64,000 nucleotides of DNA from a virus. The translations under genes were made by a program, and so were the position numbers. This document shows positions 7,873-42,825 of the stretch, piece by piece. The number at the start of each line of letters is the position of its first letter. Position 1 is the first letter of the stretch. The stretch is from positions 41,430 through 105,429 of IMG/VR virus record IMGVR_UViG_3300014257_000015. The stretch is one strand, 5' to 3'. The notes beneath the pieces were generated by a model, which was given only the letters and a program-made list of their open reading frames with translations, ran no database searches and had not been told where the DNA came from.

Positions 7873-8191
7873 TGAAATCAGAGTTTGGTTGAGTGGCCAA
7901 GAGATCGAAGGATTGCCCGCTTTGCGTGAGCGTGAGCGTGAGCCAGAAGCGAAACATCCGCCGAAGGCAATGAAAACGCCTGCCGATATGCGCAACCAAG
8001 GGAGATATCGGCTGCACCGTGATGACTCCGGTCACGTCATCGATGCCACTTTGTATTTTGGAAAGTACAATGGGTTCTGCCTAAGTAAACTTTCAACCAA
8101 TAGAGAAGGGAAGGACTACCTGTCATGGATGTTGAAACAGGACTTCCCTGGTGAATTGGTGGAGTTGATCACCAGTATGGGATGGGCGTGA
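7856..8191 (+). CDS. Small protein with FGKYxG...YL.W domain (ExoX C-terminal/DUF3820-like)
   Basis: LYFGKYNG...YLSWML. Confidence 0.55.
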   Translation: MMPTIDEIRVWLSGQEIEGLPALREREREPEAKHPPKAMKTPADMRNQGRYRLHRDDSGHVIDATLYFGKYNGFCLSKLSTNREGKDYLSWMLKQDFPGELVELITSMGWA

Positions 8192-11100
8192 TGGAAGACT
8201 TTGTAGGGTTGCACAACCATTCGGATGCTAGCCAACTAGACGGTGCTGGGAAAATATCCGAATACATCAAGGCCGTAGTCGAACGCAAGGCGCCTTCAAT
8301 CGCTTTCACCGAACACGGGACAATGCGCGGGTACCAGACGCAATATGATCAATGCAAAGAACACAACATCAAGCCAATTTATGGGATTGAATTCTATGTG
8401 GCCAATGACATGCGTCGAAAGGGCCTAACCGAAGACGAGCGCGCGGACATCACGAAAGGCAAACCTCGAAGCGAGCACAAAGATGCCATCAAGAAGTATG
8501 AAGAGCAACACGGCATCCGAGACAGATGGCATTTGACGTGCTGGGCGAAGAACGCAGAGGGAATGCGGAATATGATGCGCTTGGCGTCGCTTGCATACAC
8601 CGAGGGGTTCTACTACAAGCCGCGCATTGACTTGAACGAACTGTACAAGTACAAAGAGGGGTTGGTGGTGGCGACGGGATGTTGTTCCAGCGTCATCTAT
8701 GACAGGGCCGTGTTGGGGAAAAAGAAGCTTGCATTAGAAATTGCCGATGAGATGCGTGAACAATTTGGGGAAGATTTGTGGATTGAGATACAACCGCACG
8801 CAATCGAAGAGCAGGTGATCTCCAACCAGTTGGCACTGGAATTGAAGGATAGGTGGGGGAAGAAGGCGCGCCTGCTTGCAACGCAAGACGCACATTATGT
8901 CAGGCCGGAAGATTGGGAAACGCATGAAGTGATGCTCTGTATCGGAACCAATGATGTGATGAGCAACCCCGAGCGTTTTCGTTTCACCGGGAATGATTTT
9001 CATTTCAAAACCCGAAAGGAAATGTTTGCGAAGTTCAGATCAACACACGCTTACTTGACCAGAGAGCAAGTCAAAGAATCTTTGGACAACACGTTGGTGT
9101 TCATGGACACAATATCTGATGGCCTGGTTACCATCGATAAAGACAAGTGTCTCATGCCACCAATACCGGTTCCTGAGAAGTATGACGGCAATGAGTTCGC
9201 ATACTTGAAGGATTTGTGTTTGCGCGGTTGGGCATGGCGTGACATACCGGCCCGCGCCACTCTGTTGTCAAAGCGCGAGGGCGGCGACGAAGCAGAATGG
9301 CTGAAACGATACGTGGCAAGGTTGAAAAGAGAACTGACAGCAATCAAAAGCCAAAAGTTTGTTTCATATTTCCTTCTTGTTCACGATTTATACAATTGGG
9401 TGCGCCAGCAGGAAATCATGTGTGGGCCTGGACGAGGCTCAGCGGCGGGTTCGCTCGTTGCATACCTGACCGGCATCACATCGGTTGATCCGATAGAGCA
9501 CAATCTGTTGTTCGAACGATTCATAAGCCCAACGCGTGTCGACCAGCCCGATATTGATATGGACTTTGAGGATCGGCGCCGACAAGAGATCATCGAGTAT
9601 CTGCGAAACAAATACGGCAATGATAAGGTGTGTCAGATTGCCACCGTAGGCAAGCTTTCGGGGAAGGCTGTAATCAGAGACATATCGCGTGTTCTTGAAG
9701 TGCCGTATGCAGCAGTAAACCAAGTCACCAATTCCATCATCGAAAGAAGCAGCGGCGACGAGCGGGCCAGCCAGACGGTTGAGGACTCTTTCAAAGAATT
9801 CAAGGTGTGTCGCGAATTCAACGCCAAATACCCGGATGTTCTGAGATATGCGAAGAAGCTCGAAGGAATGGCCAAGACGCTTGGAATACACGCAGCAGGC
9901 GTCGTGACTTCTCCTGAACCGTTGATGAATCTTGTCCCATTGGAGACGAGAAAGCATGATGGCCGTGACGTTGTGGTGAGCGCCATCGATATGTACGGGG
10001 TGGCAGCGTGTGGGTTGCTGAAATTGGACGTTCTTGGGCTGCGAACGCTGAGTGTCATTCGTGAATGTCTAGAAGCAGTTGAACAACACACTGGTGAAAA
10101 GATCGACCTCGAACGCATTGATTTGAATTTGAAAGACGTTCTTCAAGGATTCACAGATCACGATTATTGTGGCGTGTTTCAGTATGATTCCCCGGGTGCC
10201 GACAAGATTTGCACAGGCGTTGAGTTCAAACACTTCGAGGACATCGCTGCCATGACAGCGTTGAATCGACCGGGCACCGCGCGAAGCGGCCTAGCCACGC
10301 AATATGTGGCACGAAAGCGCAACCCGAAATTGGTTGAAAAGGCATCGTTTCACCCAGCGGTGAGTGAAATCACGAAAGACACATTGGGAATCATCGTGTA
10401 TCAAGAGCACGTGATGCGTATTTTCACCGACATAGCCGGGTTTGCCCCAGCAACGGCGGACAGCTTGCGCAAGAAAATAGCCAAAAAATTTGGCGATGAG
10501 ACGATTGGAAAAGAACGCGAGAATTTCATTAAGGGTGCGATGGAAAATTGGGGTGACCGAGGGATGACCAAAGAGATCGCAGGAAAGATAATGGATGCGA
10601 TCACGTTCTTTGGATGTATACCTGGTGAATCGTTGGTTTTAGTGGTCGAGGGAAGTGATGAAGACTTGTGCGCATTGCGAGAGGAAAGTGTTGGCAAGGG
10701 GATTGTGCTCAATACACTACCAGAGGGAATACAGGAAGGAAAGAACGGTGATCGGGAATCCTGTGAGTTCAGAGCACAACAAGATAGGGGTGCTTGGGCG
10801 CGGGTGGAAGTCAGCGCCTGGGGCGAGGGTCATTGCGTCGAACAAGTTGCAATCCAAGAAGATAACAGGGGCATTAAATCCGTCTTGGAAGGGCGGACAC
10901 ATCAAAAACTTCAAACTAGCAAGGAACAGGTTGTTGAAGGAAGAGAAGGGATGTTGTCGTTGCGGCACTTCGTTGATCAAGGGATCAGGGCCGAATCAAA
11001 AGTCATTTCACATCCACCACAAGAATCGAAACAAAGCGGACAACCGAGAAGAGAACTTGGAAGTGCTGTGTCAAAGTTGCCACAGCAAAGAACACACGAA

Positions 11101-12942
11101 AGAAAAAATTGCTGGGCGACTTGGAAAGAAATCGAAACGCTAAAGGTTGGTGATTGGATAGTGTCTTTTGATGACGACATTCGCCCCGAGCTAAATAGAG
11201 TGAAAAGAATAGAGTGCACAGGGGTGAAGCCTGTCCGCAGGATGACACTCGAACAAGGCGAAATTTGGGCGACCGGATCGCATTGGTGGATGAATAGCAC
11301 AGGGGAATATATAGAGACAAAGGATTGCACGCCTGGTACAGAATTGCGTGTTGGTGATTCGATTTTCAAGGTTCTTGGTAATCGAAAAGATGGGCGATTG
11401 AAGACTTGGGACTTGGAGTGCGAATTCGAACCTAGCAACTATGCCGTCAGATTATTCAACAGCGATTCGTGTAATTACTTGATAAGCCATAATAGTTATG
11501 GATTCAACAAGTCGCATGCCACCGCATATGGAATCATCGCGTATTGGGAAATGTTCTTGAAAATACGCCACCCGATCGAATTCTATTGGGCGCTATTGAA
11601 GAACGAACCTGACCGAATACGAATCCAACAGATCGCTAAAGATGCTAAAAAACATGGCATAGAATTGTTGCCGCCGTCGGTGGTGAATAGCGGTAAGCAT
11701 TTCACAATAGACAGAGCAAATAATGCCATTCGTGGTTCGCTCGTCGACATCAAGGGCGTAGGTGATGCTGCGTCTGAATCAATCATGGTCGCCCAACCAT
11801 ACAAGGACTTCGGTGACTTGATTCAACGCGTGGACCGCCGAAAAGTACACAAGGGTGTCATTGTGGCATTGGCGAAGGCCGGGGCGTTAGATGACGTGGT
11901 GCCGAATCCTAAGTGGCTGATAGAAAACATCGAAGATTTTTGGACAGAGTTGGGGAAGAAGGGGTGGACAGAGAAAACAGAAAGATTGTTGCGAGATTCG
12001 GCTGATGCTCCGCAGTTCACCACCGAAGAGAGGCAGGTTGTGGCCTCGAAGGTTAGTCCACTCGCATTCGGGAAACATCCGCTCGATGCGTATGCGAATT
12101 TCATGGAACGTAGTGTGAAGGTTCCCATCGCGGCAATGTCTGATGAAGACTTTTTCAAAGACAATGACAATCAAGGCGTATTCATCGCTGGCGTCGTTGT
12201 TGAGGTGAAGTACAATCAAATTGGAGATTTCAACACAGGTGAGCTTCCCAGTGAGTTGGAAAGGAAACAGATGTTCTGGGGCCGCCGTTACGCCAATGTT
12301 AATGTCGAAGATCTTGGCGGGAAACAAAATAGGATCAAAGTGGATTTTGACATCTTTGATGATTATCGAGATGTGGTTGATTCTGGAATAGGAACGCCTG
12401 TTGTTCTTCATGCTTTTGTGAACGCGAGGTTTGAGAATTTACGTTGTCATTTCATGATCAATCTGGAAGAGTACAGGCTAGCAGTCGAAGCAGGACAAGA
12501 GTTGACAGTGTGGCAAAGCATAGTCGCTGGTCGCCATCCAGCCAAAGAATATGAATGGAAAGATCCGTCAAAGTTGATCAAATACAAGACCCCAGAGGGC
12601 GAAGAGCGCGAGGTGAAAAGGCGTTCCAATGCAATCAGGAACAAAGCATTTTGGGATCGCGTATCACCTTCGTTTGTTGGCGTTGTCACGCACGTTCGGC
12701 CAAAATATGACAAGAATGGAAACCGGATGGCATTCTTGGGATTGCTGGACGGTGGTTCGCGATTCATCAGCGTGATAGCATTCGCATCCAGTTGGACAAA
12801 AGAAGTGCGACGTGTTTTGAAACCCGGGGCGTTGGTGAAAATAGAATTGGACTCCAAAAGAGACAAACGCAGTTGGTCATATTTCTACAACGGCGGAAAA
12901 CTCAGGGTTCTGAGGTCAGCGCCATCAACCACATCACCATAG
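8182..12942 (+). CDS. dnaE: DNA polymerase III alpha subunit (DnaE), intein-containing
   Basis: PHP domain (LHNHS..S.LDG, TEHG, TQDAHY), GRGSAAGSL, PDIDMDF, GIHAAGVV, KLDVLGL, YGFNKSH, C-terminal OB folds; probable start 8191. Confidence 0.97.
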   Translation: MGVMEDFVGLHNHSDASQLDGAGKISEYIKAVVERKAPSIAFTEHGTMRGYQTQYDQCKEHNIKPIYGIEFYVANDMRRKGLTEDERADITKGKPRSEHKDAIKKYEEQHGIRDRWHLTCWAKNAEGMRNMMRLASLAYTEGFYYKPRIDLNELYKYKEGLVVATGCCSSVIYDRAVLGKKKLALEIADEMREQFGEDLWIEIQPHAIEEQVISNQLALELKDRWGKKARLLATQDAHYVRPEDWETHEVMLCIGTNDVMSNPERFRFTGNDFHFKTRKEMFAKFRSTHAYLTREQVKESLDNTLVFMDTISDGLVTIDKDKCLMPPIPVPEKYDGNEFAYLKDLCLRGWAWRDIPARATLLSKREGGDEAEWLKRYVARLKRELTAIKSQKFVSYFLLVHDLYNWVRQQEIMCGPGRGSAAGSLVAYLTGITSVDPIEHNLLFERFISPTRVDQPDIDMDFEDRRRQEIIEYLRNKYGNDKVCQIATVGKLSGKAVIRDISRVLEVPYAAVNQVTNSIIERSSGDERASQTVEDSFKEFKVCREFNAKYPDVLRYAKKLEGMAKTLGIHAAGVVTSPEPLMNLVPLETRKHDGRDVVVSAIDMYGVAACGLLKLDVLGLRTLSVIRECLEAVEQHTGEKIDLERIDLNLKDVLQGFTDHDYCGVFQYDSPGADKICTGVEFKHFEDIAAMTALNRPGTARSGLATQYVARKRNPKLVEKASFHPAVSEITKDTLGIIVYQEHVMRIFTDIAGFAPATADSLRKKIAKKFGDETIGKERENFIKGAMENWGDRGMTKEIAGKIMDAITFFGCIPGESLVLVVEGSDEDLCALREESVGKGIVLNTLPEGIQEGKNGDRESCEFRAQQDRGAWARVEVSAWGEGHCVEQVAIQEDNRGIKSVLEGRTHQKLQTSKEQVVEGREGMLSLRHFVDQGIRAESKVISHPPQESKQSGQPRRELGSAVSKLPQQRTHERKNCWATWKEIETLKVGDWIVSFDDDIRPELNRVKRIECTGVKPVRRMTLEQGEIWATGSHWWMNSTGEYIETKDCTPGTELRVGDSIFKVLGNRKDGRLKTWDLECEFEPSNYAVRLFNSDSCNYLISHNSYGFNKSHATAYGIIAYWEMFLKIRHPIEFYWALLKNEPDRIRIQQIAKDAKKHGIELLPPSVVNSGKHFTIDRANNAIRGSLVDIKGVGDAASESIMVAQPYKDFGDLIQRVDRRKVHKGVIVALAKAGALDDVVPNPKWLIENIEDFWTELGKKGWTEKTERLLRDSADAPQFTTEERQVVASKVSPLAFGKHPLDAYANFMERSVKVPIAAMSDEDFFKDNDNQGVFIAGVVVEVKYNQIGDFNTGELPSELERKQMFWGRRYANVNVEDLGGKQNRIKVDFDIFDDYRDVVDSGIGTPVVLHAFVNARFENLRCHFMINLEEYRLAVEAGQELTVWQSIVAGRHPAKEYEWKDPSKLIKYKTPEGEEREVKRRSNAIRNKAFWDRVSPSFVGVVTHVRPKYDKNGNRMAFLGLLDGGSRFISVIAFASSWTKEVRRVLKPGALVKIELDSKRDKRSWSYFYNGGKLRVLRSAPSTTSP
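10615..11493 (+). mobile_element. Intein (293 aa) in DnaE, just before the YGFNKSH motif
   Basis: FFG|CIPGES.. N-terminal Cys; IETLKVGD; block B ATGSH; block F TWDLEC; ISHN|S C-terminal splice junction. Confidence 0.92.
10658..11143 (+). CDS. HNH homing endonuclease encoded in the +1 frame inside the intein
   Basis: CAHC..ARGLCSIHY Zn finger; NPSWKGG; CCRCG...HIHHKNRNKADNREENLEVLCQSCHSKEH; GAGGGA SD upstream. Confidence 0.88.
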   Translation: MKTCAHCERKVLARGLCSIHYQREYRKERTVIGNPVSSEHNKIGVLGRGWKSAPGARVIASNKLQSKKITGALNPSWKGGHIKNFKLARNRLLKEEKGCCRCGTSLIKGSGPNQKSFHIHHKNRNKADNREENLEVLCQSCHSKEHTKEKIAGRLGKKSKR

Positions 12943-40817: not shown

Positions 40818-42825
40818 CTTTCACAAAAGAGGTCGTGATTTGGTGCGATAATTGCTGTCATTGGGAAAGAGTAAACACCAAAAATGTGCGAAAAGCCAGA
40901 AAGGTGCTGAAAAATAGCGGTTGGAGTAAGGATTCGCACGGCCACGATTATTGTCCAAATTGTACAGACAGAGAAGGGACAGCGCGATGAAGATGACGTT
41001 TATTGGATTGGAGGGCGGATGCCCCGATGATGTCCCTGTGGTGTTTGGAGCAGCGGCCGCAAAAATCGAAGACAGCGACCGCGTGACCAATTGCGTCACG
41101 TGGATGGAATTGTCGGAGAAGCGCTTTGATGAATTGGTGGAAGAGGGACACGCTACGCGAATCACTCCAGCAACCCTCGAAGTTCCAGAAACAGTCAAAT
41201 TGGAAAAACTCCAAGTTTTCATCGCTCGAAGATTGAAGAACGCGAAGAACTATGGGACAATCCGTTGGGAAACGCAGATGAGGTTAAACCCCACCATCAA
41301 CCGCCACATCCTCGGAGAATGGGTAGACGACCGAGGGGACAGGTTCATGGTTGTTGATTCGATTATTGCTGTTCCGCCTGACGAGAGCATGGTTAGGTAG
41401 GGGAGAAGATAAGGGAGTAGAGCGCCATCGATTCTTAGGTGGAAATATTGCGAAAGAAACGTGTGAAAGAAAGAGAGAACGAACGATGGAAGAGGTGAAG
41501 ATTGAATTCGGGGCGATCGCGAGAGAAATCCAACACGCAATCGACACCGGGGCGGCCTATGGGCTGGGGAAACAAATTGGAAAGGGAATCGTCGAAGAAG
41601 TGAAACCGAAGACACAGAAATTGCTCCTCAATGCTCCGAATGAAGAAGGTTGGCAAATCGACTACAGCCAATTGCAAGAGATCACAGAAAACTCCAATAG
41701 GAAGAATTGGGCGAAATTCGTATCATTGGAAGAGGTGGAAGACGTTGCGCTGGCGCTGATGGAAATGGGATTCATCGAAGGGGTTCAACTCTCGGAATCG
41801 AGCGGTGGCCCGTCTAAGCTCAAGCCAAAGAAATCCAAGAAGGGGAAGCACTCCAAACCATGACCACTAAGACAAGGTCAGAATTGGAGCGTGAGACGGG
41901 CATCCCATGCCTCGAATACGAAGAGGGCGAAGGATATGGAGGAGGGTTGAACTGCGAGTATTGCGACGCTAGCGTTGAAGGGGATTGCGACGAGTGTGTA
42001 TTGAACGGCGGAACGAAAGACCCCAGAACGTGGCAAGAATACACTCCAACCAATCCCGAGAACGCCAAATAACATAGCCGCATTACCACCCACGTAACCA
42101 CCCACATAATACACCAATTAGTACAACCTACCATTATTACAATCCACCTAGACACAACCTTATGGTATATCGGCCATATCCAATATCCATCCAATCGACA
42201 CCAATCCCAACCACCCCACACCGCGAAGAGACGAAACCACCTAACGTGTGAAAAGAAGCATAGATGATTGGAAGGACGCCATACCAATCGAAACCAATCA
42301 CCAATACCAAAACACCCACCCATCCCCGTTAAGACCATCCCGAGGCCTAAAGGATGACGTGTGAATAGAAGAGGAATTGAATGGGCTTCCGACCCCTCCA
42401 GACCTATAGGGGCAGAGGGAAGAAAGGAACGAGAGAAGGAGGGAGAAAGCCCCGTAAGGAGAAGAACGAATAACCCATATAATACAATACGAAGTAGAAC
42501 GACGATAGGAGTAGAACGTATACGTAGGAGTAGAGGAGAAGTAGGGACAGGAGAAAAGGGAATTGGAAGTTGAGGAAGAGAACGTGTGTTGTAGGGAGCG
42601 TGTGAGCGTTGTGGCGTCCCGCACACATGTGCCACACCACATCACCAATCGAAAAACCAATACAAGTAACGCGCCAACCACACATCCAGCCAATCGGCGT
42701 ATGCTCCAATCACCAATCCATAGTGCTCCAATGCTCCAATCGTTCGTACGGCGTATTGGGGCGTGTATTGGTTTACAACGAACGTTGTAACGTCGAAGTG
42801 ATGCGCCAGCGCATACGGCCGGATC

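Follow-up and report, generated by a model that had tools for sequence, protein, structure and literature searches.

Inteins whose endonuclease is encoded out of frame with the host protein were first described in 2025, and this layout is now of a known kind. In that report, Gosselin, Arsenault and Gogarten presented actinophage inteins with antisense LAGLIDADG or VSR-like nucleases, along with an endonuclease VII-like nuclease in “frame 3”, the only HNH type listed being in-frame, and proposed an invasion of inteins by free-standing endonuclease genes with continuing horizontal transfer (bioRxiv 10.1101/2025.01.02.630785). Arsenault et al. 2025 described hidden out-of-frame HNH nucleases (the ShiLan domain, Pacc40) in phage DNA methylases without an intein (PMC11855218), and Dassa et al. 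2009 reported fractured genes, in which a free-standing nuclease gene lies between the halves of a split intein (PMC2677866). Here we analyzed a 64,000-nt window, by which we mean the whole stretch of DNA from base 41430 to 105429 of a 105,429-bp IMG/VR virus record (IMGVR_UViG_3300014257_000015), in which a dnaE-type DNA polymerase III alpha gene is interrupted by an insert. This gene, the only polymerase gene detected in the phage, very probably carries a class-1 mini-intein that harbors, in a different frame, an entire HNH homing-endonuclease gene. The original prediction, made from the letters of the DNA alone, had taken such a layout as unusual, intein endonucleases being normally in-frame domains, a view that has to be qualified given the precedents in the two 2025 reports. 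What is new here is the HNH type in the +1 frame, the host protein (DnaE of uncultivated phages), and the docking site in the N-terminal hairpin of the splicing domain. The features are listed below in window coordinates, with slashes here and in the text marking intein–extein junctions or insertion points, and with pLDDT as the abbreviation of predicted local distance difference test score.

8182..12942, plus strand: dnaE-type DNA polymerase III alpha, 1586-aa precursor (Pfam PHP, DNA_pol3_alpha, finger and HHH_6; phrog_405).
10615..11493, plus strand: putative class-1 intein, 293 aa, in ITFFG/SYGFNKSH (motifs, alignment, predicted Hint fold).
10615..10653, plus strand: block A and first beta-strand of the intein, CIPGESLVLVVEG, aligning with CLPAGTLVATPLG of the mini-intein allele P0009 (pLDDT >90).
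10648..10653, plus strand: Shine-Dalgarno-like GAGGGA, 4 nt upstream of the HNH ATG, in the intein's Glu-Gly codons.
10654..11121, plus strand: inserted cassette, 468 nt or 156 in-frame residues in the DnaE frame (boundaries by alignment to mini-intein alleles).
10658..11143, plus strand: +1-frame gene for an HNH endonuclease of 161 aa, counted from the ATG (open reading frame, Pfam, PHROG).
10667..10717, plus strand: N-terminal zinc-ribbon-like motif (C5, C8, C18, H21), C8 and C18 nearly invariant in 11 homologues.
10952..11098, plus strand: HNH core with a Cys4 zinc site (C100, C103, C139, C142), PF01844 on residues 100-148.
11122..11493, plus strand: rest of the splicing domain (pLDDT 92-97).
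11272-11283, plus strand: block B T-G-S-H (T220, H223), in the splicing domain.
11410-11412, plus strand: block F Asp (D266), in the splicing domain.
11488-11493, plus strand: terminal His-Asn (H292-N293), in the splicing domain.
11494..11496, plus strand: +1 Ser nucleophile, with which the C-extein (SYGFNKSH) begins (FFG-SYGFNKSH or a close variant in homologues that lack the intein).

As in the inteins of the 2025 preprint, the host frame is open across the nuclease region and the nuclease has a separate open reading frame (ORF) on the same strand in another frame. The two differ in the nuclease (endonuclease VII-like in “frame 3” there, zinc ribbon plus HNH of the PF01844/PF13392 type in the +1 frame here), in the hosts (cultured actinophages vs the DnaE of uncultivated phages), and in the position of the ORF, which occupies the canonical endonuclease region in the preprint but, in the window, separates block A from the second strand of the first hairpin, as it does in a second phage contig (L045, see below). 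With ShiLan and Pacc40 the window shares an out-of-frame HNH of about 160 aa that starts a few bases into the insert and stops at the insert's end, in a host frame free of stops. These methylase inserts, however, have no detectable splicing domain and their peptide is thought to be retained, whereas the window's cassette sits in an intein and should be removed. Similar to the fractured genes of Dassa et al., an endonuclease gene of the free-standing type is found within intein-coding DNA, but the host frame of those genes is broken and splicing occurs in trans, whereas the frame here is continuous and cis-splicing is expected.

The source record has direct terminal repeats and a completeness estimate of 100%. 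A genome-wide family search of this complete 105-kb phage genome yielded a single PF07733 match, namely this DnaE, and no family A (PolA) or family B (PolB) polymerase was detectable in it. As the sole polymerase detected in the genome, DnaE is presumably essential to the phage, and splicing of the interrupted precursor would therefore be needed. An intein with intact splicing blocks and a +1 Ser had been proposed at 10615-11493, and all of these residues were found: the DnaE frame is stop-free across the whole interval, starting with Cys1 at 10615, and C1, H223, D266, H292, and N293 are the five invariant columns in an alignment of 17 inteins of this site. AlphaFold2, run on the same alignment, gave pLDDT values >90 at residues 1-30 and 165-294 and <50 at residues 34-137. 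The best Foldseek match of the intein model was the NpuDnaE intein (4kl5; template modeling score 0.77, root-mean-square deviation 1.7 Å), nearly all of the top 44 matches (E <=0.001) were inteins or intein-like HINT domains, and the solved mini-inteins matched also include Ssp DnaB, gp41-1, and Mtu RecA. Our identification of the intein is thus based on motifs, alignment, and predicted fold, and the element is expected to splice itself out of DnaE. A self-splicing group I or II intron was considered as well and excluded in view of the open frame, the presence of the intein residues, and an Rfam search of both strands over 10000-12000 that returned nothing at E <=1.

The cassette was delineated by comparison with P0009, a 1425-aa DnaE with a 57% identical N-extein and a 138-aa mini-intein at the identical site (...ITFFG/C...HN/SYGFNK...). 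This alignment places the cassette, corresponding to residues 14-169 of the window's intein (P0003), exactly between ...VVEG and WKEIETL, hence at the N-terminus of the Hint domain and not at the canonical site between blocks B and F, just as the original prediction had it. By alignment, the cassette replaces a three-residue turn (P-L/A-G in mini-intein alleles) of the first Hint beta-hairpin, and strands 7-12 and 166-172 flank it in the predicted model. The in-frame residues, earlier estimated at about 160 and said to resemble no domain, number 156 and match no Pfam or PHROG family, while P0003, searched exhaustively with phmmer against 1.84 billion representatives, returned 5 matches, all confined to residues 170-290. 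A functional domain made of the in-frame read-through was rejected based on the lack of a family match, the pLDDT <50, and an identity of 24-31% between loci. The insertion point (after residue 13) probably corresponds to the S1 split site of engineered inteins, an equivalence drawn from sequence position and not from a residue-level superposition. In those engineered inteins, the cut lies 10-12 residues into the chain and separates two beta-strands, and 4 of the 14 tested were active (PMC3620165). A tolerance for loops at the first hairpin is plausible because a chain break is accepted there. While the chain is interrupted near the same spot in both cases, the S1 split inteins are artificial and consist of two polypeptides, whereas the window's is natural with a continuous 156-residue loop. 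The Hint N-terminal hairpin thus appears to take a loop of this size naturally, which is relevant to the design of split and conditional inteins.

Read in the +1 frame, the same DNA encodes the zinc finger plus HNH protein that had been predicted at 10658-11143 behind a GAGGGA Shine-Dalgarno motif. Its product (P0002) exceeded the Pfam curated cut-offs for both HNH PF01844 (26.8 bits vs 21.4) and HNH_3 PF13392 (26.1 bits vs 24.8), and matched about 20 PHROG HNH families, down to 2.5e-10. Across 11 homologues, residues H121, H122, N134, H143, C100, C103, C139, and C142 are invariant and H147 nearly so, and the predicted model (mean pLDDT 73.8) displays strands at 119-122 and 135-138 followed by a helix. 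The gene has an alternative GTG start at 10655 and a TAA stop at 11141-11143, and its last 22 nt overlap the intein's WKEIETL codons. A Shine-Dalgarno-like motif is located 4 to 9 nt upstream of the start codon in the window and in four related loci introduced below (L036, L038, L042, and L045), and similar motifs precede other genes of the window. We rejected a programmed frameshift that would fuse the HNH protein to the N-extein because of +1-frame stops ahead of the ATG, in the form of a TAG at 10640, 15 nt before the ATG of the window, and of a TAA directly before the ATG of L038. These upstream stops make such a fusion unlikely and internal initiation the simplest reading, by which the HNH protein would be translated separately. 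This protein would cleave DNA and drive homing.

The claim that the two frames are both stop-free likewise withstood scrutiny, and their openness is beyond chance. The DnaE frame is open throughout, and the +1 frame between 10643 and its TAA at 11141-11143; stops abound in the third forward frame and in the three reverse frames. The DnaE frame stayed open in 0 of 20,000 synonymous recodings of the HNH gene drawn from the codon usage of the window, and in 0 of 20,000 permutations of the synonymous codons that the gene itself uses. Among 14 other genes of the window, an open run in an alternative frame reaches 130 codons at most. Across five loci spanning a GC content of 36 to 63%, <=0.4% of synonymous permutations leave the DnaE frame open, and 0 of the 44-65 codons preceding a codon that starts with AA, AG, or GA end in T. 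What keeps the DnaE frame open is solely the choice of synonymous codons in the HNH gene. Under the genetic code, NNT-to-NNC changes suffice to rid the -1 frame of any ORF of its stops, while the other frame cannot be cleared in this way (e.g., ATG followed by A), and this rule fits the same relative frame seen in all eleven DnaE cases.

Codon choice over the whole length of the gene also speaks against an assembly or sequencing artifact, in which two compensating indels would have thrown an ordinary in-frame HNH domain out of frame. The cassette does have an A6 run close to its 3′ end, yet the HNH ORF comes with a start and a stop of its own and with an in-frame TAG upstream at 10640, and the same +1 layout occurs in at least 10 independent assemblies whose proteins are 41-52% identical. 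No fused in-frame HNH form was found among the longer proteins searched, which is weak evidence in the same direction. An artifact is the least probable of all the explanations that we considered.

Purifying selection follows the HNH frame within the cassette and the DnaE frame outside of it. Since synonymous sites are saturated at 41-52% protein identity, we used per-position diversity and per-frame similarity in place of the classical ratio of nonsynonymous to synonymous substitution rates. In pairwise comparisons of four cassettes, the HNH frame displayed 41-50% identity (BLOSUM62 score 260-395), and the DnaE frame of the same cassettes 24-31% (27-146). Across 10 cassettes (140 ungapped codon columns), the mean pairwise difference at HNH codon positions 1, 2, and 3 was 0.41, 0.37, and 0.62, respectively, the most variable HNH position 3 being DnaE position 1 inside the cassette. 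In the splicing domain (17 sequences, 110 columns), the corresponding values at DnaE positions 1, 2, and 3 were 0.52, 0.44, and 0.68. Both measures are in line with the earlier expectation that the HNH frame would be under selection, and they bear on the possibility that the HNH gene is a silent relic, untranslated and carried along because the intein splices it out. A relic would be compatible with a copy that has no close relatives and for which recent homing is not demonstrable, and with the expected inefficiency of internal initiation inside a translated ORF. The substitution pattern across 10 homologues nonetheless shows that the HNH frame is under purifying selection, the intact ORF has its start, a Shine-Dalgarno-like motif, and all catalytic and zinc residues, and +1-frame stops would accrue quickly in a relic, which we regard as improbable.

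In the mechanism that we propose, frame-0 ribosomes on dnaE would produce the 1586-aa precursor, with the HNH gene read in frame 0 yielding a hydrophilic loop of 156 disordered residues on the tip of the first Hint beta-hairpin. The Hint domain (Cys1, TxxH, block-F Asp, His-Asn, Ser+1) would fold around this loop and excise all 293 residues, joining FFG to SYGFNKSH and restoring a strictly conserved polymerase motif. From the same mRNA, ribosomes starting in the +1 frame at ATG 10658 behind GAGGGA would make the 161-aa zinc-ribbon plus HNH nuclease, which most likely cuts the intein-less (or HNH-less) dnaE of co-infecting phages, with repair then copying the element in.

Several observations weigh against this mechanism. 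The in-frame intein had no Pfam Hint or intein match at E <=0.1, and no PHROG family. The Foldseek top matches of the HNH model were HNH nucleases but weak ones (E 0.3-3), and a profile search of PDB sequences with the HNH protein found nothing. A 156-residue loop at the hairpin could also slow splicing, given that only 4 of 14 engineered S1 splits were active. Finally, the window phage has no close relative, and the nearest extein is 67% identical, so that evidence of mobility applies to the family and not to the window's copy. A blastn search of the region against 50,697 phage records found no close relative by DNA, and IMG/VR pattern scans with the intein alone or the HNH protein alone gave zero matches. 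Profile searches of the two frames, suggested by the original prediction as a check on both domains, recovered the HNH above curated cut-offs and left the Hint domain without a Pfam match. We interpret the missing match (Intein_splicing, Hint_2) as the result of a divergent sequence and not of an absent fold; the related mini-intein P0009 has a sub-threshold Hint_2 match in Pfam. The lack of a Pfam intein match could otherwise be read as the sign of an insert that is never spliced and stays as a tolerated polymerase loop, as proposed for the ShiLan domain. This is highly improbable considering that all class-1 splicing residues are present and invariant, that a Hint fold is predicted with high confidence, and that the insert breaks the strictly conserved FFG-SYGFNKSH of the only polymerase.

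To place the intein among its relatives, we relied on a word-indexed search with DnaE residues 600-1200, which returned >5,000 homologues, of which the 105 best classifiable ones were analyzed. The site is empty in 80 of these 105, which read FFG-SYGFNKSH or close variants, and 25 have an insert at exactly the same point, including 8 with a mini-intein only, 14 with a long insert at the canonical B-F position, and 3 (window included) with a long insert near the N-terminus. Empty and mini-intein-only dnaE alleles, both of which the original prediction had pointed to as worth searching for, are therefore represented. The extra stretches in the long alleles are of low complexity and have short motifs in common with the in-frame read-through of the window.

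DNA of these relatives was collected from IMG/VR and JGI metagenomes using a degenerate pattern for HN/SYGFNKSH. Nine distinct loci (L036/L049, L038, L039/L048, L042, L047, L052, L055, L056, and L059) encode, in the +1 frame, a homologue that is 41-52% identical to P0002, and keep the DnaE frame free of stops; the cassette is at the canonical site in 9/9. The earlier view of a mini-intein invaded by an HNH gene is thus supported, together with its tolerance through removal of the read-through by splicing, by the cassette-less mini-intein P0009, by a Hint fold with a disordered insert, and by selection on the HNH frame, but not as a one-off event, since at least nine related DnaE inteins have the same kind of cassette, normally at the canonical site. 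A 105,469-bp phage contig (L045, = P0014; also L044) displays the same N-terminal hairpin insertion as the window with a different gene (L045:3483-4079), which encodes, in the +1 frame, a tandem HNH_3 nuclease (E = 2e-19) with a C-terminal zinc ribbon. The N-terminal site has thus been used at least twice, by unrelated cassettes.

The position xFG/SYGFNKSH is a hotspot for several intein/nuclease combinations. More distant DnaE genes (L035, L037, L040/L050, L041, L043/L053, and L058) have in-frame HNH inteins at this same position. Those of L040/L050, L053, L035, L037, and L041 share with the window the extein point, a homologous Hint domain, and an HNH nuclease, but their HNH domains lie at the canonical B-F site, have no N-terminal zinc ribbon, and are 29% identical to P0002 over 123 aa. 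Three other long DnaE inteins at this site, available as proteins only (P0024, P0036, and P0027), include in-frame low-complexity stretches unlike the window's, the one in P0027 being at a third position, about 35 residues into the intein. Further nuclease genes are probably concealed in these stretches, in another frame or on the opposite strand. The sole called homologue of the window's HNH among 5.8 billion clustered proteins is P0004 (46% identity), a truncated call on a 1.7-kb contig, despite at least ten loci encoding such a nested HNH. Nested nuclease genes of this kind are thus nearly invisible to gene callers.

In an extein-only tree of the 105 proteins, the 25 intein alleles need 22 gains or losses, the same as with shuffled labels, and several are sisters of empty alleles at short distances. 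The sample behind this tree is intein-enriched through the query, so that frequencies are meaningless, while the scatter itself is still informative. Such a scattered intein presence is as expected for homing, at the level of the family. At a finer scale, P0020, with intein plus HNH, is 97-98% identical to P0021, with a mini-intein, and a precise 146-aa indel apart from it, and both are within about 1% of the empty alleles P0062, P0064, and P0065; L047 corresponds to the DNA of a P0020-like allele. Empty, mini-intein, and intein plus HNH alleles accordingly co-occur in one sequence population, within about 1% extein divergence. Because P0021 keeps residues overlapping the first and last HNH codons, it looks like a deletion derivative (438 nt, in-frame), in agreement with the cycle of gain, decay, and loss that homing elements go through.

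The chief competing explanation turns on what is mobilized by the nuclease, either the whole intein or its own cassette only. In the latter case, the HNH cassette would be selfish by itself, as in the ShiLan type, and would home only into HNH-less mini-inteins or permissive loops without mobilizing the intein. One HNH family is indeed found at two positions within one intein family, P0020 and P0021 differ at 97-98% identity by a precise 146-aa indel, and distant HNH relatives are found out of frame in intein-less phage DNA methylases (cf. PMC11855218). Against this, the first and last HNH codons kept by P0021 make it look like a deletion product and not a naive target, and the intein-with-HNH alleles are each sister to empty alleles, fitting a co-mobilization of intein and nuclease. 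We therefore consider cassette-only homing rather unlikely and favor the mobilization of the intein together with its nuclease.

How the HNH gene reached the N-terminal hairpin was evaluated with a tree of HNH proteins. The window's HNH falls among intein-resident ones, nearest L038 and L047, and long, well-supported branches part these from free-standing relatives. The tree is otherwise poorly resolved and gives no call on whether the window copy descends from a canonical-site copy. As a naive free-standing gene would almost never be open in the host frame, we consider a fresh invasion less likely than the relocation or reinsertion of an intein-resident cassette that was already “transparent”. 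It is possible, although we propose it tentatively and with some doubt, that the HNH gene is a self-mobile, “frame-transparent” cassette, which its synonymous codons have freed of stops in the -1 frame and which could thus land in any permissive surface loop while leaving the host gene unbroken, and that it has moved between two docking sites of one intein. If true, the N-terminal hairpin would represent a second natural endonuclease site in inteins, and these loci would be living intermediates of nuclease acquisition by inteins. The finding itself, with its empty, mini-intein, and intein plus HNH alleles, offers naturally occurring intermediates for the “splicing first” view, according to which the nucleases of inteins stem from captured free-standing endonuclease genes.

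Beyond DnaE, 33 IMG/VR loci with distant HNH relatives were inspected, and in 9/33 a long open host ORF encloses the HNH in a different frame. A ShiLan-type layout was found in 7/33. Hidden HNH genes with an NPSWKGG motif and no obvious intein were seen in C-5 DNA methylases (L004:716-3499, L005, L019, and L028) as well as in N6/N4 DNA methylases (L016:890-4345, L023, and L027). Two other N6/N4 DNA methylases (L012:1431-3938 and L014:2091-4352) include an intein (CLSEDTEILT ... SRNHR ... FITGN/S) with an HNH ORF in the +1 frame, and their endonuclease region reads as in-frame junk, which corresponds to the window's architecture in another host gene.

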